This document shows positions 1 through 31,900 of a stretch of DNA of 60,185 nucleotides, in pieces. Position 1 is the stretch's first letter; each line of letters opens with the position of its first letter. The notes beneath the pieces are model-generated. The model saw nothing but the letters and a program-made list of their open reading frames with translations, ran no database searches and was not told the origin of the DNA. A program made the translations under genes and the position numbers. The DNA comes from Schmidtea polychroa (taxonomy: Eukaryota): assembly GCA_044892525.1 (NCBI GenBank), contig CM097885.1, positions 23,252,001 through 23,312,185 of the forward strand, written 5' to 3'.

Positions 1-2
1 TA

Positions 3-350
3 CCCATAACTTTACCAGTTGTTACTCTTGCACCTGTAATACTTGGAAGTATTTCTGTGGCTGATGGTTTCTTAACTGAAATAGTTTCATTATCTTATAC
101 TTCTAAAAAGAAAAGTTTATATAGAGAAGTTTGTTTATCAATAGAATTAGGAATCTCTAAATTATTTTTATTTCAATTAAAAGCTTTGGAAGATGGAATC
201 CTGACAGACGAAGAAATAATGAAATCAAATCAAATAATACAAGATATAAAGAATGAGGTTATAAGATTAAAAAGGGAGGGCATGGTGGCTAATGTTATAA
301 GTAATAAAAAAACATCTCGAGAAAAATGGTTAAAGAATTCTTACTTATAA
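3..350 (+). CDS. 5'-partial small protein with a hydrophobic segment; probable Polinton accessory ORF
   Basis: The frame is open from position 3 (PITLPVVTLAPVILGSISVADGFL...KALEDGILTDEEI...) and converges on the PolB genes inside the element. Confidence 0.5.
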   Translation, partial: PITLPVVTLAPVILGSISVADGFLTEIVSLSYTSKKKSLYREVCLSIELGISKLFLFQLKALEDGILTDEEIMKSNQIIQDIKNEVIRLKREGMVANVISNKKTSREKWLKNSYL

Positions 351-444
351 AATGGGTGTATTTTTAAAAAAGTAGATCAGGTTGCTATAGTTGCTTAAAT
401 TAATTGTCGACATTTTATTATTAAAAAATTAAATATCGTTGGTT

Positions 445-999
445 TCAGTTATGGTTGAAAGCCAACCTATGAATCATTAATTTATGATCTTTAAATTCTT
501 TATCACTTAGACCTTTTATATATTCAGGATCAGTATTAAAATATTTAAGTTCTAAACATATAGGATTAAAAACTTGAGAATATAAAGGTTTCTCGATTTC
601 TCTCTCGGGATAAATAATTTCAACATTATAAATATCAAGATCAGTAATCTTTGTATCATATAACTTATTCAACTTTTCTAGATTTTTTATTATAGGGATT
701 AAATTATTTCCAATAGGTAGAGTTGTCTTTAAATCACTTAGTATGAATCTCTTATCATCATAATTTGATAATGATATTTTTTGAGATTCTATCAAGTGAA
801 TATCATGGTTTTCACTTTTAAGTTGATGTATTTCATCAATTTTATCTTTATGATTTGGATTCAATGTATCTATATAATCTTGATGAGAAAGATTCTTTGC
901 AACCACTCTCTGTATTCCTTTACATCTGTTATCCATTAAATTAGTAATATTTTTTATAATTTCAAAAATGTTATTTTCTTGATTTTTAGTTTCCATCAT
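445..999 (-). CDS. Stand-alone duplicate of the PolB C-terminal region (184 aa)
   Basis: KGIQRVVAKNLSHQDY...NYDDKRFILSDLKTTLPIGNNLIPIIKNL...ELKYFNTDPEYI aligns collinearly with the last ~165 aa of the 1024-4851 protein. Confidence 0.7.
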   Translation of the reverse strand: MMETKNQENNIFEIIKNITNLMDNRCKGIQRVVAKNLSHQDYIDTLNPNHKDKIDEIHQLKSENHDIHLIESQKISLSNYDDKRFILSDLKTTLPIGNNLIPIIKNLEKLNKLYDTKITDLDIYNVEIIYPEREIEKPLYSQVFNPICLELKYFNTDPEYIKGLSDKEFKDHKLMIHRLAFNHN

Positions 1000-1023
1000 T
1001 TTATAGTGTTAAAATTCTAATTC

Positions 1024-4851: not shown

Positions 4852-4904
4852 TGCGATTGAATCATCTCCTCTCCAGTATTTTGCATTTCCTGTAAATTTA
4901 ACTT

Positions 4905-5405
4905 TTATAACATTAAATCTTGATCTACCAAATTTTTTATAGCATCATCCATTGATGATATTATTTTTTTTTTATTTTCTCTTACATATTGCATGATTGA
5001 TCTGGGTCCTCGTTTTACTTCTACAATTACATCGGTGTGATTGAAGTTGTCCCAATTAAACTCTAGTTTTTCAGCTTTTTCAGTCATTGAGTTTGAATCA
5101 GAATCTTTTGCTTCAAGACCACAATCTTCTATGTGTCTTAAGTAAAAAGATTTTATCTTCATCTTTTTTCCACATGCTGAACATTCGAATATTTCTCTGT
5201 TTTTAGGAACTCCAATACAATTTTTAAAATGCTTCTTATAACCTGAAAATAAATATCTATCCTTACATTTAGAACAGATTTTGGAATTAGTGTCATCTAG
5301 TGTGTTAACTTTTATTAAATGGTCTTTTGATTTTTTATGAGATGTTAAAGCAGTTTTATTTTTAAAATTTTTTTCACAAATTTCACAATTGAAAATAGCT
5401 TCCAT
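4905..5405 (-). CDS. Zinc-finger protein; probably the N-terminus of pPolB separated by a -1 frameshift
   Basis: CEIC...HKKSKDH, CSKC...HFKNC and CSAC...HIEDC fingers. Its 3' end overlaps the open PolB frame across 4905-4944. Confidence 0.7.
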   Translation of the reverse strand: MEAIFNCEICEKNFKNKTALTSHKKSKDHLIKVNTLDDTNSKICSKCKDRYLFSGYKKHFKNCIGVPKNREIFECSACGKKMKIKSFYLRHIEDCGLEAKDSDSNSMTEKAEKLEFNWDNFNHTDVIVEVKRGPRSIMQYVRENKKKIISSMDDAIKNLVDQDLML

Positions 5406-5565
5406 TTTTAAAAGAATTTTTTGGTTGAATACGATGTTTTGGTTTTGATATTAATTTTTATTTTTTTTAAATCTAAAAGTGATCAGGCGACCTAGATCAT
5501 TATGAATTAGGTAATCTGATATTCTTATAACATTAAATCCTTATAACATTAAATCCTTAAGACCA

Positions 5566-5810
5566 AGTAGTGAGGAATCTATGCACCCCGTTACCTTTTC
5601 TCGGAATTACTAATCTATAAATACATCTATTCCGAACTTTTTTACTTTTAAGGGAAGAAATTAAGGGTTAATGGCAATAGGGGACAAAGTTTAAAAGTTA
5701 AAAAAGTGAAGAATATGGGGTAAAAAAGCATATAAATGTGGAAAATATGGGTCAATAGCGCTGTTTTTTTTGAGGGTGGGGGTGCTGGGGTGCATAGATT
5801 CCTCACTACT
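5566..5810. repeat. 24-bp perfect inverted repeat AGTAGTGAGGAATCTATGCACCCC (5566-5589 / 5787-5810) at the Polinton terminus
   Basis: Read directly; the two copies are exact reverse complements. Confidence 0.95.
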
Positions 5811-8256: not shown

Positions 8257-9755
8257 TTGGAAAATAATATAATAAAACATTCAAACTCAGAATGGTCTTC
8301 AGCACTGATGCTAAAACAAAAAGCTAACGGGGAATGGAGAGCTTGTGGCGATTACAGACTCCTGAACAAAATAACAGAGCCCGACAGCTATCCATTACCG
8401 ATAATAAAAGACATAATAAATCGACTAAATGGCGCAAAATATTTTTCAAAAATTGACCTACAAAAAGCATATCATCAGATCCCAATTAGAAAAGAGGACA
8501 TCAAAAAGACAGCAATAACAACACCGATCGGCATGTTCGAATACAACCGAATGCCTTTCGGTCTACGAAACGCCGCAGCAACTTTCCAACGATTCATGGA
8601 TCAAACAATGAAAAACAACAAAAACACAATCGCTTATCTGGACGACATCCTAATAACAAGCCCAGACAAAGAAACACATCTAAAGGACGTGGAAAAAGTG
8701 TTCAAAACGCTGGACAATGCAAAACTAAAAATAAACACTCAAAAGTGCAAATTTATGAAAACGGAAATAAATTTCCTTGGTCACACGCTAAACGACAAAG
8801 GAACACAACCAATAGAAAACAAAATAAACAATATAAAAAATTACAAACTGCCGATAAACACAAGAGAGTTGAGGAGATTTCTAGGAATGGTAAACTTTTA
8901 TCATTCTTACATCCCAAACTGCAGTAAATTACTAGCACCACTAAACGATGTTATCAAAACAAAACGGAATATCACAATAAACTGGACACAACAAACAACC
9001 GACACATTCAATAAAGCCAAAGAAAGCCTATCAACGGCAACACTACTCGGTTACCCAGATCCAGAACTAGAGTACCAACTAACTACAGACTGTTCTGGTT
9101 TTGCAATGGGCGCAACAATTTTCCAGGAAAATAAATTCGGCAAACAACCACTGGGATTTTTCTCGAAAAAACTAAAATCACATCAAACAAGATACTCAAC
9201 ATTCGACAGAGAACTCCTAGCAATACACGAAGCAATCAAACACTTTCAACATTTACTCGAAGGACGAACCTTCAAGATATACACGGATCACAAACCGCTA
9301 ACAAACGCAATAGAAATGAAAAACCCTTCACCAAGGCAGATTAGACAAATCAATTTCATCTCACAATTCAACTGCACAATAAACTACGTAGCAGGAAAAT
9401 CAAACATAGCAGCAGATGCTCTATCCAGAATTGAAAGTGACATAAACGCCCTAGAATTCGAAGAGATAATTGAATTGGATCAAATTAAATCCAAACAAAA
9501 TGAAACAATTAACAAACTCCCCACTAAACACAGTTTGAAACTACAAGAATTCAACGGAGTATGGCACGACGTCTCCAACGAAAGCAACAAACGAATATTA
9601 CTCCCGGAGGAATTCCGCCAAAACTGTATCGAAAAGATACACAAGATTAATCACCCGGGAAACAAAGTAACATTCGAGCTAATACATAACAACTATATAT
9701 GGCCTAACATGCGGAAAGATATCAAAAACTACGTCAAGAGTTGTCACAGCTGCCA
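8257..9755 (+). CDS. pol: Gypsy Pol part 2: reverse transcriptase, RNase H and integrase HHCC finger (cut by insertion)
   Basis: WRACGDYR, IDLQKAYHQI, MPFGLRNA, YLDD, TDCSG, DRELLA, TDHKPL, ADALSR, H...HPG...CHSC. Confidence 0.95.
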
Positions 9756-12427
9756 AGTAGGTAGATAGTAGCCCACTGGAACAATTACCCCCCCCCCCCC
9801 CGGGGGGGGGGGGGGGTAAAATTGTTCCAACTTTTTATTACGCAATTGTTCCAACTCACATTTTTTGCTCTCAGGGATTTTTGGTCCAAATTATTTTTTT
9901 ATCACACTATAGTGAGGGGGTCTCGATGGTCCTGGGATTTTCAATACAAAAAATTTTTTTCAATACAAAAAGCTGGTCTACACTAAAAAAGCCAAGGAAT
10001 TTTCAGACTATAGTGAGGAGGTCTCGATGGTCCTGGGATTTTCAATACAAAAAAATTTTTTCTATACAAAAACGATGGTCCTGGGATTTTCAATACAAAA
10101 AAAAAATTTCTATACAAAAATCCGACTATCAATAAAAAAGCATGGAATTTTCAGACTATAGTGAGGGGTCTCGATGGTCCTGGGATTTTCTATACAAAAA
10201 TCCGACTATCAATAAAAAAGCATGGTAATTTAAGGTCTCAGGATATTTTCAATACAAAAAGCCGGTCTACACTAAAAAAGCCAAGGATTTTTCAGACTAT
10301 AGTGAGGTGAGTCTCCTTGGTCCTGAGAAATAGGTGGTCTACACTAAAAAAAAACGTGGTAATTTAAAGTCTCAGGATATTTTCAATACAAAAATCCGAC
10401 TACCACTAAAAAAGCCAAGGATTTTTCAGACTATAGTGAGGTGAGTCTTCAATAAAGAAGCATGGTAATTTAAGGTCTCAGGATATTTTCAATACAAAAA
10501 TCCGACTATCAATAAAAAAGCATGGATTTTTCGAATTAAATTAAGGTGGGTCTCCTTGGTCCTGAGAATTTCAATAGACAAAGGTGGTCTACACTAAAAA
10601 ACGTGGTAAATTTTTTAAAATTACAGTAAATTATGGGTCTAAAAATTGAATTACAGTAAATTATGGACTAAGATTTTTAAATTACAGTAAATTATGGTCC
10701 AAATTTTTCAATTAAAGTAAATTATGGTTCAAATTTTTCAAATAAGGTAATTATGGTCCTAAAAAATTAAATTACAGTAAATTATGGCTCAAATTTTCAA
10801 ATAAGGTAATAATGGTCCTAAAAAATTAAATTACAGTAAATAATGGTTCTAAAAATTAAATTAAAGTAAATTATGGTTCTAAAATATTAAATTACAGTAA
10901 ATTATGGTCCAGATTTTTCAATTAAAGTAAATAATGGTCCAAATTTTTGAATTAAAGTAAATTTAAGTTCTTAAAAATTAAATTACAGTAAATAATGGTC
11001 CAAATTTTTAAATTAAGTAATCAATGGTAAAAAATTTTAAATAAGTAAATTAAAGTAATAATTTTTAAATAAGTAAATTAAAGTAATGTAATAAGTAAAT
11101 TAAAGTAAGATTTTAAAATTTAATTACAAAATAATAGAAGGTGTTTGAGAATTGAAATTTTTTAATGAAAATTTTTATGAAATAATTTTTAAGTAATTTT
11201 TAATAGAAATTTTAATGAAATATTTTTCAATGGTAATTTTAGATGGATATTTTTATGAAATATTTTTCAATGATAATTTTAGATGGAAATTTTTAAGATA
11301 ATTTTTAATGAAAATTTTTATGAAATATTTTTCAAAGACAAATTTTAATAATAATTCAACAACAAACCAACAACTTAGTACCAACAACCAGTAACTTATG
11401 AACATGTATTAACAACCAGATACCTACAACTAGTTACTAACAATCAGTTACCTGAGACCAGATACCTACAACTAGATACCTACAACTAGTTACCTGATAC
11501 CAACTACTAACAACCACCTACCCATTAACTAGCTACAACCAGCTAACAACTAGCTACCAACTACCAAGTACTAACAACCAGTTACCTGATACCAACTACT
11601 AACAACCACCATCAACCAGGTACTAAGCATTATCAACCAAGTACTAACAACTAGATACCTAGTTACTAACAACCCGCTAACAACTAACAACTAGATACCA
11701 AGTACCAGTAAATTACGAACATGTATTAACAACCAGATACCTACAACTAGTTACTAACAACTAGTTACCTGATAGCAACCAACTAGCTACCACCTACCAA
11801 GTACTATCAACCAAAAACAACCAGGTACTAAGCATTAATTACCAACTACTAAGTACCTACAACCACCTACCAACTACTTATAACCAACTACTAAGTACCT
11901 ACAACTTGTTACTAACAACTAGCTACCACCTACCAAGTACTAACAACCAGTTACCAACTACTAAGCATTAATTACCTACAACTAGTTACTAACAACTAGC
12001 TACCAAGTACATACAACCAACAACTAAGCATTATCAACCAAGTACTAACAACCAAATAACTTACCTAGTACTAAGCACTGTCAACTAGATACCAAACACT
12101 TACAACCAGATGACCACATGAAATTATTGGTTAAATATGAAAATAAGGATTATATTTAGTTGTTAAGTAAATTATGGTGTAAAATTAAGAAATAAAGAAT
12201 AATTAGGTAAATTAAGGATAAATTAAGGAAAATTAAGGTTCAAAATTTAAAATTAAGTAATCAATGGTTCAAATTTTAAATTAAAGCTAAAGGAGTAAAT
12301 TAAAGTAATAATTTTTAAATAAGTAATGTAATAAGTAAATTAAACTAAGATTTTTAAATTTATTATCAAAAGATTGAATAACCACCAACTTTTTTGAGAA
12401 ATGTAATTTTTAATGAAAATTTAAATG

Positions 12428-12493
<66 letters not shown>

Positions 12494-15400
12494 TACTAAT
12501 AATAATTCAACAGTTACCAACAATCGCTTACTAAATATTTTTAACTAGGTGCTGACAAATAAGTACCAAATACTTACAACATGATACCACATACTAACTA
12601 AATCTCAATCAACCAAGTAAAAACAACCAAGTACTAACAACCAACTAAATCTTCTTCATTGTATCTTATGAAATGCTTTTTAAATTATTTTTTTATATGT
12701 CTTCAAAAATATGTTTAATTACAATCAGTAGAAAAACCTTTTCAAATTTAACAAAAATGTTGATTTTCATCAAAAACCACAACTCAATCACTTTAAAACA
12801 CCACGTCATATTCAAAATAATTACAGTGAAAGACTAATGAATTCTAATTTACAAAACATTCTTCTTTTAATTGATTACTACTGACTTATTATTGCAATGT
12901 AAAAATCGCATTCAATAAATACTTATTGTTGATCAATTTTATTATATATACTCTGAGTTTATCCGACAGGATGTTTTGACCCCCCTAAGGGTACAGGTCG
13001 TAAGGGTACTGGTCGTAAGGGTATTAGTCGTAAGGGTATTGGTTGTAAGGATATTGCTAACTCTCAACCCCCATCTACCCATTAAGTAGTTACTAAGTAC
13101 TATCAACCAGCTAACAACTAGATACCATGTACTAACAACCACCATCAACCAGATACTAAGCATTATCAACCTACAACTATATAACAACAATCAGTAAACA
13201 ACACTATACCAACTACCAAATATAAGATACCAACAACTTAGTACCAACAATCAACTAACCACACATAAAAATAATAGCAATTAAATACAAAACATTCTTC
13301 ATCGCATACACTATCTTATCAAAATCTAAAAAGTCAATCAGATATCAACTATCAACTACTAACAACCAACAACTATGTACTAACACAAATTGATCTTTAA
13401 AAGTAAATACTCATCACTTGGCAAATTGGATGAAAAATTATTTGAACTCAAGGTATCAATAACTAGGTAAAAATTGATTAAATTATTGTAAAAATTTAAA
13501 TTATTCAAAATAAATATCATAAAAATTTAATTAATGGACAAGAAAGAATTCTAATCATCCAGTAAATAAAAAAAATACTGATCATTCAAGTTGAATTAAC
13601 TAAGATAATAAATTAATAAGATAAGATCTAGTAGATAATTTATTTAGATTGAATAAATTAATTGAAATAAAATTAATTTTAATTATTTTTTTGTAAAAGT
13701 AATACATGTACTCAAATTGATTGACTGATTTCTCAATATATTCAAAAAATCAGTATAAATTCATTACAAATATTGGATGAAAAATTAATTGAACTCAAGA
13801 CATCAATAACTTGGTAAAAATTGATTAAATAATTGTAAAAATTTAAAATTTTCAAAATAAATGTCATAAAAATGTAATTAATGGACAAGAAAGAACTTTA
13901 AATTCTAGTCATTGATCATTCAAGTTAATATGAATCAACTAAGATAATAAATTAATAAGAATTTTGAAATAAGATCTAGTAGATAATTGATTTAGATTGA
14001 ATAAATTAATTGAAATAAAATTAATTTTAATTATTTTTTTTTTAAAGTAATACATGTACTCAAATTGATTGACTGATTTCTCAATATATTCAAAAAATCA
14101 GTATAAATTCATTACAATTATCAAAGTCAGCAATCTACAATAACAATAATTATCATTAAATTTCAAAAGAGACTAGAAAACTAACAAACCAGTAAATTCA
14201 TTTAAATAACAATAATTGGTATATTCAAGCGAATTCTCTAATAAAAAACATCTAAAAAGCATCAAATTTCCCTGAAATATCTCTATGTTTAAAGATTAGT
14301 ATCTTATCGATAAGTACTTGTTAAAGATCATATATTCACCTCAAACTAACAAGATTCATTAAAATCCCTTAAATGACTATATTTCAACCCTTAATTCGTA
14401 TTATTACAAATATCATCTAAAAAGCATCAAATTTCATTGAAATAACTCTATCCTTAAAGATTGATATTTTAATGATAATTACCCTTAAAAGATCATATAT
14501 TCCCCTCAGACTAATAAGATTCCTTAAAATCATTTAAATGACTATAATTCTAACTTTAATTCCTATTATCACGAATATTTCCCTATAAAACATGTAAAAT
14601 AATTTGGTCATTAACCCTAAATAATTTATAAAATCTAATGATAAAACCGGTTATAATTAAATTTTTGTTAATCACTGTAAATATTTGTAAATTACTACTC
14701 GAAATTTAAAATAAATATAACTGACTAGGTCCCATTGAAAGATTAAATTTATCCATTCAATAAAATATATTTCTTCAAATGTTCATTTTTACCGATATTC
14801 AACCGATTTAATTACTAATTAAAATCAATCGATATATTTCTTCCAATAAAGATCAATTTTATTGAGTTGTTGTCGATGTTTTAAGTCCATATTTCTAAAC
14901 TTTTGTCATTCTCCACCTAAATAAAGATAAAAATAATTTAAAGTTGATATCAATCCCAATTATTTGTAAAGATTTCATTGTCAAAACCAAGTAAATCGAT
15001 CATTAACCCTACTTAATAAAACATAAGTCTAAATTAATATACAATGAATTAATCACAACCTAATAAAACGATATAATTTCACATTAATATTGATTCATAA
15101 CTGACTAATGTATTGACATTTCCCTTAAAACATTGATATTTTACCAACATCTCCCTTACAATGATATATTCCCATCTTAACCCATCCTTAATTAAATTAA
15201 ATCGACTATATCCCCTTTAAAGATCATATATTCCCACCTTATCCGATCTCTCATTAAATCTAACCGACTATATCGCCTCAAAAGATCATATATTCCCATC
15301 TTAACCCATTCTTCATTAAATTCAATCGACTATATCTCCCTTACAATGATATATTCCCATCTTAACCGATCTCTCATTAAATCTAACCGACTATATCCCC

Positions 15401-17157
15401 CTTAAAAGATCATATTTTCCTATTTTAATCGATCTCTCATTAAATATTTCTACCTCTTTAAACATCTAACCGAATATATCCTTCAATTCTATCCACTTGA
15501 ATCCTCCTTTAATTCACTCAATCCTCTTAAAATCCTTAGAGAACTTCAAAAATATGACTTAATTGTTACAGACACCAAATATTCTTCCATTGAAATAATT
15601 TAGTAGCTATGTAGTAAGAGTTCACTAAAAGATCAAAAATCAATATTTTCTACAAATATTTACCATCAAATACTGGAGATGAAATATATTGTTTGATTAT
15701 AATTCTTCATCGATTCAACCAATCATTTTCAAGCAATAACAGCAAACTAAATTTCTGTATATCCTACAATCATTTTCAAGTAAATTTAAAGTTAACTGGT
15801 TTCTTAGCTTATGTTTTTTAAAGTGCATCAATGTGTAAATATTCTTAGAAAATTATTGAAAAATTATTTATTCAAATGCATTACAAAGTCATCAAAAATC
15901 ACTTAATTATTAATCTAATTGTCAATGAAATTAATTTTTATTTAAAAACTATTCAATAAAATACAACTAATTATCAAGAAATTAATTAAATTTATCAATT
16001 AAATTTATCACCATTAAAACTTTTAATCAGTCAACATGAAATTCTTAGAAAATTATTCAATATCCTCATAAAAATTTATCCTATCACTTGATTATTGTAC
16101 AAACTTTAATTATTAACCTCATTGAAAATAATTTTTTATTTAAAATTAAAAAACAAGTCAATAAAAATACATCCAATTATCAAGAAATTAATTAAATTTA
16201 TCTTAGAACTAACTTTAAATTTTTAAATATTCTTTCAATCAACATGAAATTCACAAAAATAATAGAAATTCATGAAAATGATAGATATCCACGAAAAATT
16301 ACGGAAATTCATGAAAATATTAGAAATTCACAAAAAATGATGGAAATTCATGAAAATGATAGAAATTCATAAAAATGATAGAAATTTACTTGAATAAAAC
16401 CATCAACTAAAAATTATCAATGCCTTAAACAACAAATTTGTCTAAATAATCATTCAAATAAAAGCATTAAATACCTTTACGACTAATACACTTACGACAT
16501 GTTGAATGTGAGTAGTACCCTTGTGAGCAATACCCATAGGGGGACAGAATATTTTTTCGGATAAACTCAGAGTATATATTAATTAACTCATTCAAATTTA
16601 TCATTGAATCAGTAAAATTATCATAAATTTCGATAAAAATTCTAATGTGGTAAGCAATGAAAAGAGAAATATTCTTTAAACTTAGATAAAACTAACAATG
16701 AAGGTGGTAAGAATCATTAAAGTGAGAAAATTATTCATTACTCGATGATAAATTCAAATGGATGAAAATAATTGGTAGAATAATTTATTAATGGGCATAG
16801 ATAAGAAAAAAGGTTGATAAGAATGGAAATATATTAATTGAATTTATTTAAAATTATTTCATAAAATTCATAAAAAAAAACTTTTAAAAGAAATATTTGT
16901 GGAGATGTTTTAGGTGAAAATTAATCACAATCGGCGGAATATAATTGATTAAATATCGAGGATGGGGGTTATAATTAATGGAAAATCAATGGGATACAAA
17001 TGATTAAATAGTGGAAAATCCGGGAATATAAGTGATTAATTAATGGAATATTGAGAATCGGAGGAATATCAATGAGAAGGATATATAATTTAAACTAGTT
17101 TATTACATAACAAGCCGCGACTAGTTTATTACATAACAAGCCGTGAATGGTATTTTA
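9756..17157 (+). repeat. Left arm of the giant inverted repeat (7,402 bp), built from successive degenerate tandem arrays
   Basis: Arrays at about 9900-10610, 10615-11110 (~31 bp), 11360-12115 (AC-rich), 12431-12489 (AAT)n, 12990-13055 (15 bp), 13420-14120 (~350-bp duplication), 15150-15480 (~61 bp), 16245-16390 (21 bp) and 17093-17143 (27 bp). Confidence 0.92.
12951..16572. mobile_element. Possible nested TA-flanked TIR element within the arm (mirror copy 18736-22357)
   Basis: TATATA-CTCTGAGTTTATCCGA ... TCGGATAAACTCAGAG-TATATA, with subterminal TACCCTTACGAC-type repeats at both ends. Confidence 0.55.
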
Positions 17158-17972
17158 CCAACATTTTTAAAGTATGTTATTTAATTTTAATTTTATTTTT
17201 AAATTGTACATATTTTGAATATCATTCTATTGTTTAATTTCGATAATAAGTATAAAAAGTCTATAATGATTAATAAATTAATATCTTGTTAACATTTACC
17301 AGAGAATTTAAAAAACTTTACTTAAAATTTAGTGAAGTATTTAATTTTGATTGTACTTTATAAGACATATATTTGAGTATTAACTTATTTTGATTGAAGT
17401 ATCACATTCAATATTATGATGATTTTTTTTTTCTAAATTGAAATATTTTAGTGTAAAATAGTTAATTTGATAATAAATAGAATACAATGTTAAAGGACTT
17501 TTTGAAAAAAAAGTTAGTTTCTACTGCCTAATCAATAAGTTTAAAAAGTTTAGAACTGTTAATAAATCAATTTCTTATTCGCATTTACATATAAAATTTT
17601 TATTTTTAAATTAAAGTAATAAATTGATGATTTATTTTAATTGTATTTGAATGATACATTTAATTTACTTTGATTGAAAGGAGTAATATAATTCATATTA
17701 TGATATTTGTTTTCGAAATATTTAGTGTAGAATAGTAAATTTAATAATATATAGCTATTATTACAAGTACTTATACAAAAAAAACACTTTTTATTTCTAA
17801 TGTTTTATTCCATCAATAAGTTTAAAAGTATGTAACTGGTAATAGATTAATTTCTTATTTACATTATTCGAGAATTTGAAAAACTTATAAAATTTATATT
17901 TTTAAAATTTAATTTTGATTGTATTTTCTAAGACTTATATTTGAATATTTAACTTATTTTGAATGAAAAGGG

Positions 17973-18027
<55 letters not shown>

Positions 18028-18150
18028 CTTTTATGATAATTGTTTTTGAAATACATAATGCAAATTAAAACATTTTAGTAATAATTTGCTATTATTTTAG
18101 AATTTATTTTAGTCAAAAATTAAAAAAAAGATCTAATCAATAATTCTCAA
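17158..18150. repeat. Central spacer of the palindrome (993 bp): about three diverged ~285-bp units plus (TA)n
   Basis: Related blocks (AATAAGT.TAAAA.GT...TAATA.AT.AAT.TCTT) begin near 17242, 17531 and 17811; (TA)n at about 17976-18023. Confidence 0.65.
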
Positions 18151-21100
18151 TAAAATACCATTCACGGCTTGTTATGTAATAAACTAGTCGCGGCTTGTTA
18201 TGTAATAAACTAGTTTAAATTATGTATCCTTCTCATTGATATTCCTCCGATTCTCAATATTCCATTAATTAATCACTTATATTCCCGGATTTTCCACTAT
18301 TTAATCATTTGTATCCCATTGATTTTCCATTAATTATAACCCCCATCCTCGATATTTAATCAATTATATTCCGCCGATTTTGATTAATTTTCACCTAAAA
18401 CATCTCCACAAATATTTCTTTTAAAAGTTTTTTTTTATGAATTTTATGAAATAATTTTAAATAAATTCAATTAATATATTTCCATTCTTATCAACCTTTT
18501 TTCTTATCTATGCCCATTAATAAATTATTCTACCAATTATTTTCATCCATTTGAATTTATCATCGAGTAATGAATAATTTTCTCACTTTAATGATTCTTA
18601 CCACCTTCATTGTTAGTTTTATCTAAGTTTAAAGAATATTTCTCTTTTCATTGCTTACCACATTAGAATTTTTATCGAAATTTATGATAATTTTACTGAT
18701 TCAATGATAAATTTGAATGAGTTAATTAATATATACTCTGAGTTTATCCGAAAAAATATTCTGTCCCCCTATGGGTATTGCTCACAAGGGTACTACTCAC
18801 ATTCAACATGTCGTAAGTGTATTAGTCGTAAAGGTATTTAATGCTTTTATTTGAATGATTATTTAGACAAATTTGTTGTTTAAGGCATTGATAATTTTTA
18901 GTTGATGGTTTTATTCAAGTAAATTTCTATCATTTTTATGAATTTCTATCATTTTCATGAATTTCCATCATTTTTTGTGAATTTCTAATATTTTCATGAA
19001 TTTCCGTAATTTTTCGTGGATATCTATCATTTTCATGAATTTCTATTATTTTTGTGAATTTCATGTTGATTGAAAGAATATTTAAAAATTTAAAGTTAGT
19101 TCTAAGATAAATTTAATTAATTTCTTGATAATTGGATGTATTTTTATTGACTTGTTTTTTAATTTTAAATAAAAAATTATTTTCAATGAGGTTAATAATT
19201 AAAGTTTGTACAATAATCAAGTGATAGGATAAATTTTTATGAGGATATTGAATAATTTTCTAAGAATTTCATGTTGACTGATTAAAAGTTTTAATGGTGA
19301 TAAATTTAATTGATAAATTTAATTAATTTCTTGATAATTAGTTGTATTTTATTGAATAGTTTTTAAATAAAAATTAATTTCATTGACAATTAGATTAATA
19401 ATTAAGTGATTTTTGATGACTTTGTAATGCATTTGAATAAATAATTTTTCAATAATTTTCTAAGAATATTTACACATTGATGCACTTTAAAAAACATAAG
19501 CTAAGAAACCAGTTAACTTTAAATTTACTTGAAAATGATTGTAGGATATACAGAAATTTAGTTTGCTGTTATTGCTTGAAAATGATTGGTTGAATCGATG
19601 AAGAATTATAATCAAACAATATATTTCATCTCCAGTATTTGATGGTAAATATTTGTAGAAAATATTGATTTTTGATCTTTTAGTGAACTCTTACTACATA
19701 GCTACTAAATTATTTCAATGGAAGAATATTTGGTGTCTGTAACAATTAAGTCATATTTTTGAAGTTCTCTAAGGATTTTAAGAGGATTGAGTGAATTAAA
19801 GGAGGATTCAAGTGGATAGAATTGAAGGATATATTCGGTTAGATGTTTAAAGAGGTAGAAATATTTAATGAGAGATCGATTAAAATAGGAAAATATGATC
19901 TTTTAAGGGGGATATAGTCGGTTAGATTTAATGAGAGATCGGTTAAGATGGGAATATATCATTGTAAGGGAGATATAGTCGATTGAATTTAATGAAGAAT
20001 GGGTTAAGATGGGAATATATGATCTTTTGAGGCGATATAGTCGGTTAGATTTAATGAGAGATCGGATAAGGTGGGAATATATGATCTTTAAAGGGGATAT
20101 AGTCGATTTAATTTAATTAAGGATGGGTTAAGATGGGAATATATCATTGTAAGGGAGATGTTGGTAAAATATCAATGTTTTAAGGGAAATGTCAATACAT
20201 TAGTCAGTTATGAATCAATATTAATGTGAAATTATATCGTTTTATTAGGTTGTGATTAATTCATTGTATATTAATTTAGACTTATGTTTTATTAAGTAGG
20301 GTTAATGATCGATTTACTTGGTTTTGACAATGAAATCTTTACAAATAATTGGGATTGATATCAACTTTAAATTATTTTTATCTTTATTTAGGTGGAGAAT
20401 GACAAAAGTTTAGAAATATGGACTTAAAACATCGACAACAACTCAATAAAATTGATCTTTATTGGAAGAAATATATCGATTGATTTTAATTAGTAATTAA
20501 ATCGGTTGAATATCGGTAAAAATGAACATTTGAAGAAATATATTTTATTGAATGGATAAATTTAATCTTTCAATGGGACCTAGTCAGTTATATTTATTTT
20601 AAATTTCGAGTAGTAATTTACAAATATTTACAGTGATTAACAAAAATTTAATTATAACCGGTTTTATCATTAGATTTTATAAATTATTTAGGGTTAATGA
20701 CCAAATTATTTTACATGTTTTATAGGGAAATATTCGTGATAATAGGAATTAAAGTTAGAATTATAGTCATTTAAATGATTTTAAGGAATCTTATTAGTCT
20801 GAGGGGAATATATGATCTTTTAAGGGTAATTATCATTAAAATATCAATCTTTAAGGATAGAGTTATTTCAATGAAATTTGATGCTTTTTAGATGATATTT
20901 GTAATAATACGAATTAAGGGTTGAAATATAGTCATTTAAGGGATTTTAATGAATCTTGTTAGTTTGAGGTGAATATATGATCTTTAACAAGTACTTATCG
21001 ATAAGATACTAATCTTTAAACATAGAGATATTTCAGGGAAATTTGATGCTTTTTAGATGTTTTTTATTAGAGAATTCGCTTGAATATACCAATTATTGTT

Positions 21101-22814
21101 ATTTAAATGAATTTACTGGTTTGTTAGTTTTCTAGTCTCTTTTGAAATTTAATGATAATTATTGTTATTGTAGATTGCTGACTTTGATAATTGTAATGAA
21201 TTTATACTGATTTTTTGAATATATTGAGAAATCAGTCAATCAATTTGAGTACATGTATTACTTTAAAAAAAAAATAATTAAAATTAATTTTATTTCAATT
21301 AATTTATTCAATCTAAATCAATTATCTACTAGATCTTATTTCAAAATTCTTATTAATTTATTATCTTAGTTGATTCATATTAACTTGAATGATCAATGAC
21401 TAGAATTTAAAGTTCTTTCTTGTCCATTAATTACATTTTTATGACATTTATTTTGAAAATTTTAAATTTTTACAATTATTTAATCAATTTTTACCAAGTT
21501 ATTGATGTCTTGAGTTCAATTAATTTTTCATCCAATATTTGTAATGAATTTATACTGATTTTTTGAATATATTGAGAAATCAGTCAATCAATTTGAGTAC
21601 ATGTATTACTTTTACAAAAAAATAATTAAAATTAATTTTATTTCAATTAATTTATTCAATCTAAATAAATTATCTACTAGATCTTATCTTATTAATTTAT
21701 TATCTTAGTTAATTCAACTTGAATGATCAGTATTTTTTTTATTTACTGGATGATTAGAATTCTTTCTTGTCCATTAATTAAATTTTTATGATATTTATTT
21801 TGAATAATTTAAATTTTTACAATAATTTAATCAATTTTTACCTAGTTATTGATACCTTGAGTTCAAATAATTTTTCATCCAATTTGCCAAGTGATGAGTA
21901 TTTACTTTTAAAGATCAATTTGTGTTAGTACATAGTTGTTGGTTGTTAGTAGTTGATAGTTGATATCTGATTGACTTTTTAGATTTTGATAAGATAGTGT
22001 ATGCGATGAAGAATGTTTTGTATTTAATTGCTATTATTTTTATGTGTGGTTAGTTGATTGTTGGTACTAAGTTGTTGGTATCTTATATTTGGTAGTTGGT
22101 ATAGTGTTGTTTACTGATTGTTGTTATATAGTTGTAGGTTGATAATGCTTAGTATCTGGTTGATGGTGGTTGTTAGTACATGGTATCTAGTTGTTAGCTG
22201 GTTGATAGTACTTAGTAACTACTTAATGGGTAGATGGGGGTTGAGAGTTAGCAATATCCTTACAACCAATACCCTTACGACTAATACCCTTACGACCAGT
22301 ACCCTTACGACCTGTACCCTTAGGGGGGTCAAAACATCCTGTCGGATAAACTCAGAGTATATATAATAAAATTGATCAACAATAAGTATTTATTGAATGC
22401 GATTTTTACATTGCAATAATAAGTCAGTAGTAATCAATTAAAAGAAGAATGTTTTGTAAATTAGAATTCATTAGTCTTTCACTGTAATTATTTTGAATAT
22501 GACGTGGTGTTTTAAAGTGATTGAGTTGTGGTTTTTGATGAAAATCAACATTTTTGTTAAATTTGAAAAGGTTTTTCTACTGATTGTAATTAAACATATT
22601 TTTGAAGACATATAAAAAAATAATTTAAAAAGCATTTCATAAGATACAATGAAGAAGATTTAGTTGGTTGTTAGTACTTGGTTGTTTTTACTTGGTTGAT
22701 TGAGATTTAGTTAGTATGTGGTATCATGTTGTAAGTATTTGGTACTTATTTGTCAGCACCTAGTTAAAAATATTTAGTAAGCGATTGTTGGTAACTGTTG
22801 AATTATTATTAGTA

Positions 22815-22880
<66 letters not shown>

Positions 22881-25797
22881 CATTTAAATTTTCATTAAAA
22901 ATTACATTTCTCAAAAAAGTTGGTGGTTATTCAATCTTTTGATAATAAATTTAAAAATCTTAGTTTAATTTACTTATTACATTACTTATTTAAAAATTAT
23001 TACTTTAATTTACTCCTTTAGCTTTAATTTAAAATTTGAACCATTGATTACTTAATTTTAAATTTTGAACCTTAATTTTCCTTAATTTATCCTTAATTTA
23101 CCTAATTATTCTTTATTTCTTAATTTTACACCATAATTTACTTAACAACTAAATATAATCCTTATTTTCATATTTAACCAATAATTTCATGTGGTCATCT
23201 GGTTGTAAGTGTTTGGTATCTAGTTGACAGTGCTTAGTACTAGGTAAGTTATTTGGTTGTTAGTACTTGGTTGATAATGCTTAGTTGTTGGTTGTATGTA
23301 CTTGGTAGCTAGTTGTTAGTAACTAGTTGTAGGTAATTAATGCTTAGTAGTTGGTAACTGGTTGTTAGTACTTGGTAGGTGGTAGCTAGTTGTTAGTAAC
23401 AAGTTGTAGGTACTTAGTAGTTGGTTATAAGTAGTTGGTAGGTGGTTGTAGGTACTTAGTAGTTGGTAATTAATGCTTAGTACCTGGTTGTTTTTGGTTG
23501 ATAGTACTTGGTAGGTGGTAGCTAGTTGGTTGCTATCAGGTAACTAGTTGTTAGTAACTAGTTGTAGGTATCTGGTTGTTAATACATGTTCGTAATTTAC
23601 TGGTACTTGGTATCTAGTTGTTAGTTGTTAGCGGGTTGTTAGTAACTAGGTATCTAGTTGTTAGTACTTGGTTGATAATGCTTAGTACCTGGTTGATGGT
23701 GGTTGTTAGTAGTTGGTATCAGGTAACTGGTTGTTAGTACTTGGTAGTTGGTAGCTAGTTGTTAGCTGGTTGTAGCTAGTTAATGGGTAGGTGGTTGTTA
23801 GTAGTTGGTATCAGGTAACTAGTTGTAGGTATCTAGTTGTAGGTACTTGGTATCAGGTAACTGGTTGTTAGTATCTAGTTGTAAGTACTTGGTAGTTGGT
23901 TGTTAGTTGTTGGTATCAGGTTGTAAGCTGGTTGATAGTACTTGGTATCTGGTAATTAGTTGTAAGTACTTGGTTGTTTGAGAGTTATTTAGTACGTGGT
24001 ATCTAGTTGTTAGCTGGTTGTAGCTAGTTAATGGGTAGGTGGTTGTTAGTAGTTGGTATCAGGTAACTAGTTGTAGGTATCTAGTTGTAGGTATCTGGTC
24101 TCAGGTAACTGATTGTTAGTAACTAGTTGTAGGTATCTGGTTGTTAATACATGTTCATAAGTTACTGGTTGTTGGTACTAAGTTGTTGGTTTGTTGTTGA
24201 ATTATTATTAAAATTTGTCTTTGAAAAATATTTCATAAAAATTTTCATTAAAAATTATCTTAAAAATTTCCATCTAAAATTATCATTGAAAAATATTTCA
24301 TAAAAATATCCATCTAAAATTACCATTGAAAAATATTTCATTAAAATTTCTATTAAAAATTACTTAAAAATTATTTCATAAAAATTTTCATTAAAAAATT
24401 TCAATTCTCAAACACCTTCTATTATTTTGTAATTAAATTTTAAAATCTTACTTTAATTTACTTATTACATTACTTTAATTTACTTATTTAAAAATTATTA
24501 CTTTAATTTACTTATTTAAAATTTTTTACCATTGATTACTTAATTTAAAAATTTGGACCATTATTTACTGTAATTTAATTTTTAAGAACTTAAATTTACT
24601 TTAATTCAAAAATTTGGACCATTATTTACTTTAATTGAAAAATCTGGACCATAATTTACTGTAATTTAATATTTTAGAACCATAATTTACTTTAATTTAA
24701 TTTTTAGAACCATTATTTACTGTAATTTAATTTTTTAGGACCATTATTACCTTATTTGAAAATTTGAGCCATAATTTACTGTAATTTAATTTTTTAGGAC
24801 CATAATTACCTTATTTGAAAAATTTGAACCATAATTTACTTTAATTGAAAAATTTGGACCATAATTTACTGTAATTTAAAAATCTTAGTCCATAATTTAC
24901 TGTAATTCAATTTTTAGACCCATAATTTACTGTAATTTTAAAAAATTTACCACGTTTTTTAGTGTAGACCACCTTTGTCTATTGAAATTCTCAGGACCAA
25001 GGAGACCCACCTTAATTTAATTCGAAAAATCCATGCTTTTTTATTGATAGTCGGATTTTTGTATTGAAAATATCCTGAGACCTTAAATTACCATGCTTCT
25101 TTATTGAAGACTCACCTCACTATAGTCTGAAAAATCCTTGGCTTTTTTAGTGGTAGTCGGATTTTTGTATTGAAAATATCCTGAGACTTTAAATTACCAC
25201 GTTTTTTTTTTAGTGTAGACCACCTATTTCTCAGGACCAAGGAGACTCACCTCACTATAGTCTGAAAAATCCTTGGCTTTTTTAGTGTAGACCGGCTTTT
25301 TGTATTGAAAATATCCTGAGACCTTAAATTACCATGCTTTTTTATTGATAGTCGGATTTTTGTATAGAAAATCCCAGGACCATCGAGACCCCTCACTATA
25401 GTCTGAAAATTCCATGCTTTTTTATTGATAGTCGGATTTTTGTATAGAAATTTTTTTTTTGTATTGAAAATCCCAGGACCATCGTTTTTGTATAGAAAAA
25501 ATTTTTTTGTATTGAAAATCCCAGGACCATCGAGACCTCCTCACTATAGTCTGAAAATTCCTTGGCTTTTTTAGTGTAGACCAGCTTTTTGTATTGAAAA
25601 AAATTTTTTGTATTGAAAATCCCAGGACCATCGAGACCCCCTCACTATAGTGTGATAAAAAAATAATTTGGACCAAAAATCCCTGAGAGCAAAAAATGTG
25701 AGTTGGAACAATTGCGTAATAAAAAGTTGGAACAATTTTACCCCCCCCCCCCCCGGGGGGGGGGGTAATTGTTCCAGTGGGCTACTATCTACCTACT
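18151..25797 (-). repeat. Right arm of the giant inverted repeat (7,647 bp)
   Basis: Mirror coordinates sum to 35308 internally and 35557 distally. It carries an extra 248 bp between ~90-bp direct repeats starting at 23755 and 24003. Confidence 0.92.
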
Positions 25798-26809
25798 CTG
25801 CCAACTAAACAAAACAACAAAAAAACTCAAAACAAAAAAATTAAACTTCCCAAGCAGCGAAATATTTGAAACAATACACACAGATGTGGTAGGACCATTA
25901 CCACCAAACGACAACTACAAATACCTCCTAACAATTATAGACAGGAAATCCAACTGGTTCGAAGTAATCCCAATAAAAGAAATCAGCGCGAAAAATATCT
26001 GTGAAATGATCGAATTAAATTGGATAGCTCGTTATGGCCAACCGAAAACAATCATAATTGATCAAGGCAGACAATTCGAATCAGAAATGTTCAAAATACT
26101 GTGCAATAAATACAATATCAAAAGAAATCGAACAACAGCTTACAACCCACAATCAAATGGGAAAATCGAACGGTTTCACAGAACATTAAAAGAAAGCATC
26201 AGGACAAAAGCCAATGACCAAAACTGGTTAAACCAACTTCCAACAATATTAATCGGACTAAGAAATAGCCCAAATTCAACAGATAATGAAAGTCCAGTAT
26301 ACAAAATTTTCGAAAAAGCAACAAACTTGCCATCACTTAAATCAGATACAAACAAAAACACCGAAAACAGCAAACAAATAACAAACAAAAATAGCGAAAC
26401 CACCGAACAGAAACCAAAAGGAATTTTAAAAAGAAGACCGGACTCCGAATTAGACGGAAAAATAGTATTAACAACAGATTTCATCCTAATAAAAAAACCA
26501 TTCACAAAAGGATTCGAATCCAAATACGAGGGTCCATTCAAACTCCTAGAAATTAACAAAAACGTCGCCACAATAATCAAAAACAACAACAAAATGAAAA
26601 TAAACATAAGACGAATAAAACCCTATCACCAAAACAAAAACCCACAAAACAACTCACCGCAAGACAAAACACAAACCCAAACACAAACAAAAAAACAACC
26701 AATTCACAAAAACATCACATTCAACCACAAAAATTCAATCAAAATATTCGATAAAGACACAATACTGGCTCCACTATACAAAAAACGTTACAGCGAATGC
26801 TTTAAATAA
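25798..26809 (+). CDS. pol: Gypsy Pol part 3: integrase catalytic core and C-terminus
   Basis: IHTDVVGPLP, IIIDQGRQFES, NGKIERFHRTLKE (DDE triad) and YEGPF. It joins part 2 in frame as CHSCQLNK once the insertion and one TSD are removed. Confidence 0.93.
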
Positions 26810-27051: not shown

Positions 27052-27768
27052 TGTAATGTACAGTTATTTTTGTTAATATTTTAGTATTCACAATTAGGAA
27101 TTGTGTATACTAAGATATAAAATACAACCATCTGGGAAATCCAGATTTTTAATAAAACTATAGTAAATTAAAAAATTAAAAAAAGTCAATAAATAAATCA
27201 AATAAAATTTAGAACAAACAGGAACTAAGACAAGAATAAGAAAACAAATTTAGAAGAAATTGGAAAGAATATTATTAAACCAATTCCTTTAAAACGGAAA
27301 AAAGAATATTAGAAGACTAGAACAAAACAAAGATCAGAAATAATACTATAAAATAACCTCTGAGGAGAGAATCCGACAAAACTAATTCCGTAAAAGATTA
27401 GAAAAGATATTACCTATTAATCTCTGAAGCAACCTCTGAGGAGAGAATCCGACAAAACTAATTCAGTAAAAGATTAGGAAAGATATTACCTACTAATCTT
27501 TGAAGCAACCTCGGGGACAAAGTGGTTAATTTTTTTTGTATAGTTAAATAAAAGTTTTAGTATCATAATTGTTATACAGTTATATTTATTTTTAGTTTTA
27601 TTCATCACCACACAGCCTGCACCCCGATTGTCCCAACACATTTTTTTGGTGACTCTATCGGGCTCTTCAAATTCTCCTACAAAATAACATAAATTAACAA
27701 TAATTAACAATAATAACAATAAAAACAATAATTTATTAACTATAATAACAACCATAACCCCCATAACA
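27052..27768 (+). repeat. Gypsy 3' LTR (~717 bp)
   Basis: TGTAAT...ATAACA. The last 437 bp match the 5' LTR remnant; the start is inferred from the PPT. Confidence 0.85.
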
Positions 27769-28690
27769 AACCTCATTAAAAATTAATTTTTATTTAAAAT
27801 TTAAAACCAAGTCAATAAAATATAGCAAATTATCAAGAAATTAATTAAATCTGTCTTAGAATTAACACTAAAACCTTAACTTTTTAAAATATTCTTTCAA
27901 TTAACATGAAATTCACAAAAAATGGTAGTAAAATCCCGTTAACTCTAAAAAATTACCAATGAATTTAATGCCAAATAATAACCAAATATTTGCCTAAATA
28001 AAATAATTAAAACACACCAGTACCTTTACGACCAGTACCCTTACGATCAATACCCTTACGACCAATACCCTTACGACCAATACCCTTACGACCAATACCC
28101 TTACGAGCAGTACCCATAGAGGGAGAAAATATGTTGTCGGATAAACTCAGAGTATATATAATAAAACGAATTAACAATAACTCCATCAAATTGAATCAGT
28201 CAAATTATCACAAATTTTGATAAAAAATCTTATTCTAAAATGGTAAGCAGCGTAAAATCGAAAGATAATTTTAATAACACAGAGATAAAATTAACAATAT
28301 TATTTTCACGTGGTAAGAATCATGATTATTCTATGATTAATTAATAATGAAATTCAAAAAGGTTATGGAAAGTAAATGTAAATATTCTGAGAAGTGGCAT
28401 AGATAAGATGGAAATATATTAATTGCATTTATTTAAAATTATTTCATAAAATTCATAAAAATTTATAAAAAATGATCACTTTATTAAAAAATATTTAATA
28501 CAATTTTCAAAGAAATATTTGTTGGGAGGATTAGTGGAAAATCGGGGGCTGTAAGTGATGAGGATATATAAAATTATTTCTAATATATGAGTTACTAACG
28601 AATTAAAATATTTTAATAATGCGATAAACATTTATTTGATAAAGTATTTAATCCACAAATGACAAACATACATAACAAATGGTATTTGAC
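27769..28690 (+). repeat. Diverged homologue of the palindrome inner arm (about 16115-17157)
   Basis: Collinear blocks: AACCTCATT.AAAAT, AAGTCAATAAAA, TTATCAAGAAATTAATTAAAT, TCGGATAAACTCAGAGTATATAT, GGCATAGATAAGA, ATTTATTTAAAATTATTTCATAAAATTCATAAAA, ATGGTATTT. 15-bp TACCCTTACGACCAA array at about 28020-28115. Confidence 0.8.
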
Positions 28691-28980: not shown

Positions 28981-31900
28981 CAGCCCCGTACCGTGACACC
29001 TTTTGACGGGGGGGGGCCCAGACTCTCATTAAAGGGGCCAGTAATTCTCGTGTAAACTAAGTATTTTATGAAAACAGACTAGTCACTACTCACACTTTGC
29101 ACTCCGAAATGTTCAATTTAAAAAAAAGGAAAGCAAAATCGACATTTTGTCTGAGCATTATTTTGCTACATTATTGCATATACTAGTATATAGGAAATGA
29201 TTTTCGCACATTTTTTAGGAACAAACACAAAAAACAAATAGCTGCATGTATTTTCACGACGGACAATTGGACATACAAAGACAGAACACACAGTCACACA
29301 GATTTGAAAACTAAAGGTGAGTGCAATAGAAATTACACAGGAACTAGATCCAGAAAAAAGAAATTACGAGTGTGAGATATCGACATGACTCAAAATAGCT
29401 GCAGTCGACGATTTTTCATTTCATGAAACCGCCGAAGAAACTCATCAGATTTGATGTTATTACTGATGTCACTTTCAAATGAGAGCAATACAAGGTTGGC
29501 TTTACGAGAATGGCTCATCGACGTACGAAAGGAGTTAAGACACGAGATAAAGTACTGACAGCCGCCTCACATGTGGCAGTTGAAGCACCGATTGTCAGTG
29601 CAGAAGCTGCAAGACGATAGACAGATGGAAAAGCATCTCGGTATGAGTACAGTTCTTGCACTAACTGATGAACGTTTGTCACAGTACTGGCTCTCTTCAA
29701 TAGGAAAACCTTTGCAGTTTCAAATTCATGTTGGGTTTCGCTTAGGTCCACGCCACACAGTGTCGCTAAAGACTTTAGCTCCTCAATATTCAAAAGGTTT
29801 GCGTGATCAGTCTTCAAACATGCAAGAGACTTATCAAGGCTTCTGTTGGTGACACCGAAGCGTTTTGTTAGTTCCTGCAGAGTCCTATCAAGGACTTCGT
29901 AATACATCTGGCAATATGCGCATCTGATAGGCAAGGCCTGGTGTTCTGGCTGTCCCACAGATCCGAACACAATGAAGTTGTCTAATTTTGAGTTCATCTG
30001 AGTTCTTCTTCTTTTTGATGTCTGTTCCATATCCATTTGACCTTCGAATTTCCCCAAAAGAACTTGGAATTCCTCTTCATTGCGTAGGCTGCGAATGCGC
30101 TCTATGACGGCATCCATAACATCACATGCTGAAGAAAGGTCCATTGCTTGACCCTGCAAGCTATTGTTGGCTGTTTCAAGGATAGTCAGCAATGAGAGCA
30201 CCATGTGTGCAATGAACTGAAACTCCACTTCATTGACTCGATGCAAGAGTCCAGTAGCTTCCAATTGAATATCAATTGAAAAGTGAGAATGTCTACTAGA
30301 ACACATCTCAAGCAAATTCACAATTGTATCATAATTAGTTGTTATTGCCTGAGTCGTCTGCAAGTGTCCTGTCCAACGATGTTCCATGAGCCGTGTCAAT
30401 TTATCGCCATGATATATGGCCGAAACCTTAGGATATGACAAAAATGTGTATAAGTTTCTGCATATGTCGAAGAAGTCCCGCAGTTTTTGGCACTCAGAAA
30501 CGGCACACACAACAACCAAATGCAACTTGTGGTTGAAGTAATGGACATACGGAATTTCTTTTTGTAGACGCTCCTGAAGCAAGGCCTGCACCCCACCATG
30601 CTGTCCAGACATAACAGCGGCTCCATCATAGCATTGGGAAATTATATTTTTAGGATCCAACTGAGCCTCTTTCAAGGTTGTCAAAATTACATCTGTGAAG
30701 GCCTCTGCATTGAGAGCAATTGTTCGGGAAATGCAGATTAAGTGCTCCTGAGGTTGTCCTGCTGAGACAAACCTTATGGCAATCGACACATTCTCAGTCC
30801 CTGTTCGATCTTTGGTACCATCCACCTTCAGAGTAAAATATTCAACATCCGCAGACTTGCACTTCTTAACAATTGACTCTTGCACTATTGATGCCATTAA
30901 CGCGATAATTTCATTTTGAATTCGAGGTGATGTGTACGTGGCAATTTTGGGAATCGTTTTAATGATTCGAGCCAGCTCAGGATTTTTCTTAACAGTGTAT
31001 TCGAAGAGACGTAAAAATAGACCACACGGAAGCTTATCATCCTCATCAATATCATCTCTACTGAAACTGTCACCACGAAAGGCTAATTCATTTGTCACAA
31101 GAAACTTTACAACGTCAACGATTTCGTTGACATAATAACGGTTGTTCTTCAGCTGTGTTTCATTAATCAAAGTGCAAACTTCCTCACCTTTTTCACATCT
31201 CAGCTGTTTCTCTTTCCAGCGTTCCATGGCATGGATGTGGCCACCAGAAGATTCATGCTTTTGAAAACCTTTTCCTTTTTCTAAAGCCGATTTCCAATTT
31301 CGGAATCCTCCTGTTCTGAAAGCACTTTCGCCAGCAGAGCTGGGCAATGAAAATTTTCTACAGCAAAAGCAGAAGACTGCATCTTTCTCAATAGAGTACT
31401 CCAAATATGGTCTTCCATTATACCACACAGACGAAAATGAGCGTTCCCTTGAACCAAACGAAGTCTTTGGTAAATTTACATCAGTTGGCTGGCGTGGCAT
31501 TTCTTCACTCAGATCACATTTAGTAGATGACAGAGTCTTAGCAGGTTCACAAGAAGATGAGGACATCACTGCACTGTCACGGATACATGAAATAGCAGGT
31601 ACAGATGAAGGACTAGCACAAGTTGAGGACATAGTAGCAGAGATACTATTACTCGATGAAGTGACTGAAGTCACAGAATTCTTTGGAATGACTTGGAAGA
31701 AATTCATGATACTCTTTTGTGTCGACATGTTCTAATACGATGAAAATAATGTTACAAAATATGATCAATTAACATGTCACTCTGCCATAGGAGTGAGTTG
31801 AGTATAATGACATGTGATGTGCTCTCATTGGCCTATCTCTCTACCATCGTATAAAAACCACAATGCACCCACTCCGTGCTCTGACACTCAATCATGCCTC

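Follow-up and report, generated by a model that had tools for sequence, protein, structure and literature searches.

A gene-less 16-kb palindrome in Schmidtea polychroa, probably a long-lived fold-back satellite of a Polinton with the same ends

The window analysed here, a stretch of 60,185 bp from Schmidtea polychroa (GenBank assembly GCA_044892525.1, 781 Mb; contig CM097885.1, here C1, positions 23,252,001 to 23,312,185), carries a palindromic element of 16,042 bp that splits the pol gene of a Gypsy retrotransposon. Its left arm measures 7,402 bp (window positions 9756–17157, plus strand) and its right arm 7,647 bp (18151–25797, minus strand), so that arms make up 93.8% of the element around an asymmetric spacer of 993 bp (17158–18150). 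The reverse-complement alignment of the two arms spans 7,651 columns and contains 2 substitutions and three indels (4, 1 and 248 bp), the last corresponding to 248 additional bases of the right arm (about 23846–24093) within a 14-bp repeat array. The hexamer CTGCCA is directly repeated at the two flanks (9750–9755 and 25798–25803, both plus strand) as a target-site duplication (TSD), and the flanks beyond it are unmirrored. The terminus reads AGTAGG, one base off the motif (AGT)2, and a gene-bearing Polinton family described below, referred to here as the helper, ends identically. The near-perfect arms, the arm content of about 94%, the termini and the TSD of the original prediction were thus all recovered.

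The left arm is non-coding and consists mostly of tandem-repeat modules. In its outer 1.6 kb (9756–11355, plus strand) it shows homology to the helper family's terminal inverted repeat, with 97% identity to one helper end over the first 466 bp and an identity lowered to 75–78% over the whole 1.6 kb because the modules are shuffled. A subterminal hairpin of a C-run and a G-run (9777–9829, plus strand) is found in helper ends too, and the first 150 nt folded as single-stranded DNA gave z = −4.4. Farther in, at 12165–12507 (plus strand), the inner end of the helper's terminal repeat recurs together with an (AAT)n run; this is the last clearly helper-like stretch of the arm, which past about 2.75 kb shows weak, scattered helper matches only. 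The arm interior (12843–16686) lies between the halves of an old inverted repeat of 68% identity (12843–13040 and 16470–16686), and a 26-bp tandem repeat (17094–17158, plus strand) marks the border between arm and spacer. A 17-bp core motif of the interior has 6,576 genomic matches compared with about 3,700 expected from the arms alone and, because this count exceeds what the arms supply, the interior may either have been captured from a host repeat or be what is left of an earlier fold-back. The same motif also occurs away from full elements as outward-facing pairs about 0.9–1.1 kb apart, which suggests a smaller related repeat family.

The claim that the element has no credible open reading frame held. 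The longest ATG-initiated frame in arm and spacer is 73 aa, compared with a median of 70 aa in shuffled sequence, and tblastn searches with 15 Polinton proteins against seven gene-less copies returned nothing at E≤0.1; neither a hidden gene nor a decayed helper gene was therefore detected in the arm. For a structured RNA within the family, Rfam gave no match at the gathering score in window positions 9700–18300, where the sub-threshold matches all fell on the terminal hairpin, and nothing at E≤0.05 at six other loci.

The host Gypsy element occupies 5810–27769 (plus strand; 3′ long terminal repeat (LTR) at 27052–27769), and the comparable parts of its LTRs differ at 5 of 438 bases. The palindrome lies between the zinc-binding part of pol and the core of the rve integrase domain. 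Contigs from three of four sequencing runs join position 9749 directly to 25798; uninterrupted Gypsy copies, that is empty sites, therefore exist, in favour of the proposed insertion as a single unit. The Gypsy element is itself inserted, with a 5-bp duplication, into decayed sequence resembling the arm interior, and decayed patches related to that interior lie on both sides of it.

Copies of the element are abundant. The terminal 33-mer has 148 exact matches in the genome and a second terminal variant 345, and the first 14 terminal bases, common to both variants, have 2,266 matches compared with 4 for the control. A 30-mer probe of the arm, placed past its helper-like stretch, matches 1,833 times (≤1 mismatch) and an integrase 30-mer of the helper 279 times (≤2 mismatches). 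Facing terminus pairs less than 45 kb apart numbered 37 in the first 26 Mb of C1: 16 contained inverted arm probes, four a single arm probe, four the polymerase and integrase probes and one the integrase probe only, and 12 were without listed exact matches. Nine further copies were compared at full length, six of them gene-less palindromes and three gene-bearing, which brings the gene-less total to seven with the window copy. Gene-less and gene-bearing copies alike carry the terminal 33-mer without a mismatch. When the copies and their duplications were tabulated, as had been suggested, 16 of 19 insertions with both ends showed an exact duplication of 6 bp (none longer), two a duplication with one mismatch and one none.

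The seven gene-less copies, 16.0–17.6 kb long, are homologous along arm and spacer, the window spacer being about 80% homologous to the others. Two copies on different chromosomes differ at six positions in 6.1 kb, and the gene-less form therefore spreads as a unit. In five of the seven the arms stop in or just past the 26-bp repeat, and one copy, on a 66-kb contig, has lost the spacer; its centre has moved to about 550 bp inside the arm, where it folds around a loop of some 40 bp. Because copies are up to 12% apart and have the spacer in common, the window element is a member of an old lineage rather than a fresh defective genome. A helper copy was also observed inserted, with a 6-bp duplication, into the arm of a gene-less copy (L047:134 to L048:7113). 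A search of viral_contigs for the family terminus gave no match, which is weak evidence either way.

Arm identity was compared within and between copies. In a segment of 830–900 columns, the two arms of the same copy were identical (0 differences) in six of the seven gene-less copies, and left arms of different copies were 0.1–11.9% apart, the window copy lying 8.1–11.9% from the rest. The outer arms differed by at most 5 substitutions in four copies, and the other three are mosaics in which the inner 1.5–2.4 kb, the outer 2 kb or the outer 5 kb are divergent. It is very unlikely that this near-identity is an artefact of assembly or polishing, or of fold-back chimeric reads. Assemblers can homogenise near-identical long repeats, the evidence consists of contigs rather than spanning reads, and the copy with the shifted centre sits on a 66-kb contig; however, the unmirrored flanks and the direct 6-bp duplications in 16 of 19 insertions argue against an artefact, as do the 2 substitutions and the 248-bp indel retained by the window arms and the coverage of 30 of 30 bins by contigs of three runs (all four runs compared were contigs), and polishing would not make sequences with 8–12% divergence identical within copies only.

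A second alternative is that a non-autonomous Polinton is moved by the helper integrase only, with host repair or gene conversion of a chromosomal or excised hairpin keeping the arms alike. Long inverted repeats are generally known to convert each other in chromosomes, the blockwise mosaic arms of three of the seven copies could be conversion tracts, and replication is itself deduced from sequence. We nevertheless consider this explanation unlikely. The window copy is 8–12% from the others and sits inside a young Gypsy element, and its arms were therefore already alike at or before insertion. In one mosaic the left end matches a helper end at 99.35% identity over 1,538 bp but the right end of the same copy at about 70%, and the duplication is intact; because a helper-derived end is combined here with an intact duplication, we infer that helper and satellite may swap ends before insertion, implying exchange between free molecules. 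Finally, an integrase-less palindromic family, described below, keeps open frames that encode pPolB, a protein-primed DNA polymerase, in both arms, suggesting selection on replication.

The original prediction called for an autonomous Polinton with the same ends, and one was found that has the exact terminal 33-mer and, in three of three full copies, no other transposase. Gene-bearing copies have the termini of the palindrome, and their terminal repeat, about 1.6 kb long, shows homology to its outer arm. They encode a pPolB of 1,419 aa that contains family B motifs and has relatives annotated for the most part as PF03175; the identification relies on these motifs and relatives, as the polymerase had no sequence match in PDB and no direct match to PF03175. 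The helper integrase, with rve and chromo domains, lies in two frames. The frame break falls at the same place in three of three full copies, at a short AT-rich stretch with GT and AG at its borders (L048:3578-3603), which is probably an intron. The helper also encodes an A32 ATPase, an adjoining TBP-like protein (L048:4692-5204), a RING protein, an adenovirus protein X-like frame and an adenain-type protease that scores over the Pfam cut-off. A 408-aa protein is capsid-like, its best Atlas matches being double-jelly-roll clusters (0.98, with a recognition value below the threshold of the tool). These genes correspond to the Polinton gene set as given in PMC4028283. In a separate tandem array at C1:233.0 Mb, dozens of copies with a period of about 916 bp match the helper RING probe at two mismatches.

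Of the polymerase copies of the helper family, 33 were scored; all are 98–100% identical over the main match and 32 are without a stop, and these near-identical, almost always stop-free copies mark the helper family as young. Nine copies are 17.0–18.0 kb long and three others 19–21 kb. Taken together, the sequences indicate that the gene-bearing partner is a Polinton with the same ends and the likely helper of the palindrome.

A different Polinton, which ends close to the palindrome, was also considered as helper. This 15.2-kb element, whose right part lies in the window (1–5809, minus strand), sits in the 5′ LTR of the Gypsy element with a GATCAG duplication and contributes pPolB to the window, its capsid, PLA2-integrase and ATPase genes lying upstream of it. 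Its AGTAGT-type end at 5809 is about 4 kb away, as had been noted, and its role as helper is ruled out: its ends are unlike those of the palindrome, none of its 16-mers recurs in the arm's first 3.6 kb, and its polymerase and the one of the co-terminal family are only 28% identical. The terminal repeat of this neighbouring element contains its own terminus again, inverted, about 240 bp inside (L039:625-990).

The exactly common and exchanged ends also bear on a third alternative, namely that the palindrome is a foldback-type cut-and-paste transposon moved by an unrelated transposase that likewise gives 6-bp duplications. The FB and Galileo foldback transposons have very long inverted arms of tandem modules around a variable loop, and the palindrome resembles them in its long modular arms and variable loop; in addition, an abundant host repeat is related to the interior of its arms. 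Unlike these elements, the palindrome is partnered by a Polinton that carries polymerase and capsid-like genes instead of a cut-and-paste transposase. All three full gene-bearing copies with these ends are Polintons and none carries another transposase (most of the 2,266 termini being uninspected), and the ends are exchanged with Polintons, making this the least probable of the alternatives and one that we regard as extremely unlikely.

Forms that combine helper genes with an inverted architecture were found elsewhere in the genome. The element at C1:186707364-186725444 is a recent helper derivative, 18.1 kb long. Its ends are of the helper type, its duplication is an exact 6 bp, and it carries two open polymerase frames in inverted orientation. 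Its left 7.8 kb recurs inverted at the right, replacing the right part of the helper, and the inner arms, the only arm part compared as sequence, show 0 substitutions and 3 gaps in 1,776 columns. The middle of 2.75 kb is 99.7–100% identical to the helper capsid region where compared and stops abruptly at a 2-base overlap; this junction is what a strand switch in replication predicts. A simple fold at the centre of the derivative was considered and is wrong, as the middle is an asymmetric 2.75 kb. Judging by position, it lacks the part with integrase, ATPase and TBP, and no exact match to the integrase probe was found within the derivative, which was thus inserted without an integrase of its own, implying supply in trans. 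Neither arm contains the RING gene that occurs in other helper copies.

A second candidate lies on C3, where the polymerase and RING probes both occur in inverted arrangement (coordinates only). Inverted pairs of the integrase probe, 2.4–9.5 kb apart, also occur at C1:67.72–67.86 Mb, 174.75 Mb and 216.07 Mb (likewise by coordinates), one of which has inverted RING probes about 0.5 kb apart as well; these pairs are possibly fold-backs of the other end of the helper. Among the first 100 matches of the polymerase probe, 29 adjacent pairs faced inward (+/−), 4.5–11.5 kb apart, compared with one pair in the opposite arrangement (−/+), and the integrase probe lay near none of the 58 paired matches (≤15 kb) compared with 29 of the 42 single ones (≤25 kb).

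Such inverted polymerase pairs could be read as fresh copy-backs of the helper, a reading that proved wrong for C1:4822493-4835897. This 13.4-kb palindrome is flanked by an exact 6-bp duplication, and its arms, each with an open polymerase frame of 1,208 aa, enclose a spacer of about 1.05 kb. It represents a separate family, with a different terminus and a polymerase 91% identical to that of the helper. The terminus of this polymerase-bearing family has 372 matches, forming 43 pairs with a median length of 13.6 kb. Among the 38 best polymerase matches, 28 fall in 14 inverted pairs and 36 are without a stop. One element of this 13–15 kb family was compared as a full sequence.

We conclude that the window element is probably a long-lived fold-back satellite of the active co-terminal Polinton family, replicated and integrated in trans, a reading that draws on the shared termini, the same 6-bp duplication, the dispersed gene-less copies and the exchange of terminal repeats. 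That it is a helper-dependent Polinton derivative, taken alone, appears very likely. In the mechanism that we propose, the helper rve integrase would insert the palindrome, and the protein-primed polymerase of the helper would copy it from the ends by strand displacement, the displaced strand snapping back over nearly its full length. Template switching or repair inside this fold-back would keep the arms alike, and switches between molecules would produce the copies with mixed arms. The architecture itself may have originated when a strand switch by the polymerase replaced one helper end by an inverted copy of the other, as in the 18.1-kb derivative, with genes lost or replaced after this fold-back origin. 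The helper-like length might reflect packaging in helper capsids, which is the most speculative and weakest step.

Several observations weigh against this scheme. Homogenisation does not appear to act in every round, as three of the seven copies have partly divergent arms, and the left and right terminal repeats of the helper are 75–88% alike in the three full copies, though close in others. One full-length copy has no duplication. Beyond about 2.75 kb the arm contains no detectable remains of helper genes, and the copy-back origin of the gene-less family would be argued by analogy with two other forms; of the copy-back origin put forward in the original prediction, the existence of copy-back-like forms, two in number, was confirmed and direct descent of the window arm from the present helper was not demonstrated. 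The size match is loose, given the helpers of 19–21 kb, one two-arm copy of 12.1 kb and the polymerase-only family at about 13.6 kb. The sequence basis for the gene-less family is its seven full copies, the remainder being probe counts, and the palindrome is known from assembled contigs rather than from free molecules, virions or spanning reads.

Comparison with known systems places the palindrome between two classes. Polinton/Maverick elements were reportedly described by Kapitonov and Jurka in 2006. Like them, the palindrome has a 6-bp duplication, a length within 15–20 kb and a terminal repeat in common with a full Polinton in the same genome, and its ends are AG…CT with short repeats, though one base off their usual motif; unlike them, it is gene-less, with arms of 7.4–7.6 kb compared with the repeat of about 1.6 kb in the helper. 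Polinton ends are given as 5′-AG…CT-3′ with an (AG)3 or (AGT)2 motif (PMC8097293), and terminal repeats of 584 bp in anole (PMC3014272) and 744 bp in C. elegans (10.1101/2024.01.15.575659) have been described. The pPolB and rve integrase that define an autonomous Polinton, usually together with ATPase, protease and capsid, are absent from the palindrome and present in its gene-bearing partner; its 6-bp TSD, termini in common with an autonomous Polinton and gene-less dispersed copies are those expected of a non-autonomous one. Non-autonomous Polintons such as Polinton-1N1_DR are known by name (PMC9341505); that element presumably depends on a helper and has Polinton ends. In the titles and abstract openings of the literature searched, with Repbase reports and most subscription papers outside scope, we found no giant palindromic Polinton derivative, polymerase-only palindrome or series from helper to satellite that includes a copy-back junction; long-armed non-autonomous forms may already be in Repbase.

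The second class is that of snap-back genomes, a known class of defective viral genome (PMC13506859; snapback genomes of adeno-associated virus, PMC8235507). Snap-back and copy-back genomes resemble the palindrome in the inverted duplicate of a genome end, the dependence on a helper and the nearly full self-complementarity, whereas here we see integrated, heritable lineages up to 12% apart, with non-helper filler and helper length, rather than short products of each infection. The palindrome, 93.8% arm, has the inverted end duplication with nearly full self-complementarity. Parent-derived sequence makes up its outer 1.6 kb and one repeat of it but not the rest of the arm; in the 18.1-kb derivative it extends up to the switch point. 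Defective adenovirus DNAs and palindromic derivatives of the yeast plasmid pGKL1 are also said to occur. The palindrome shares with these and with the subgenomic products of phage phi29 the class of polymerase and template switching as the proposed cause; to our knowledge, such products are extrachromosomal and are not known to integrate with a target duplication or to form lasting genomic families of high copy number. Replication of protein-primed replicons begins at short terminal repeats, and in phi29 subgenomic molecules build up, for which template switching has been held responsible (Murthy 1998, cited in PMC4974454). Judged from its sequence, the palindrome is in its observable features a non-autonomous Polinton that appears to work like a snap-back defective genome, parent-derived only in its outer part.

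Other features of the window lie to the right of the Gypsy element. Two remnants of hAT-type transposases, with DUF4371 and hAT dimerisation domains, are found at 29515–31731 and 37625–39035. Two MFS transporter-like frames (41684–43141, minus strand; 50905–52557, plus strand), separated by (AAT)n runs, form an inverted duplication of 87–90% identity (41499–52750), and inverted (TAA)n/(TTA)n arrays of about 800 bp lie at the window end (59336–60173).

The gain over the first reading of this locus is the identification of a co-terminal helper together with a series of intermediates. We tentatively arrange these as a succession from the full virus through an integrase-less copy-back and a polymerase-only palindrome to the gene-less palindrome, in which the gene-less forms would be copied by the helper pPolB, be padded to about unit length as a result of packaging in helper capsids and, outnumbering the helper, act as endogenous defective-interfering genomes or satellite viruses of an animal Polinton; we advance this as possible rather than probable. 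For vertebrate Mavericks, no virions had been seen (PMC8097293), and in a Polinton model opposing terminal repeats anneal before copying by pPolB, the fold-back single strand being still a model (10.64898/2026.07.28.741278). About 900 elements (the arm-probe count roughly halved) of 10–17 kb would amount to about 1–2% of the genome, an estimate that fragments inflate, and such a load of palindromes would have consequences for genome stability, double-stranded RNA and assembly. A young family with mappable switch points, concerted arms and exchange of ends would thus provide genomic evidence on the mechanism by which Polintons are copied.

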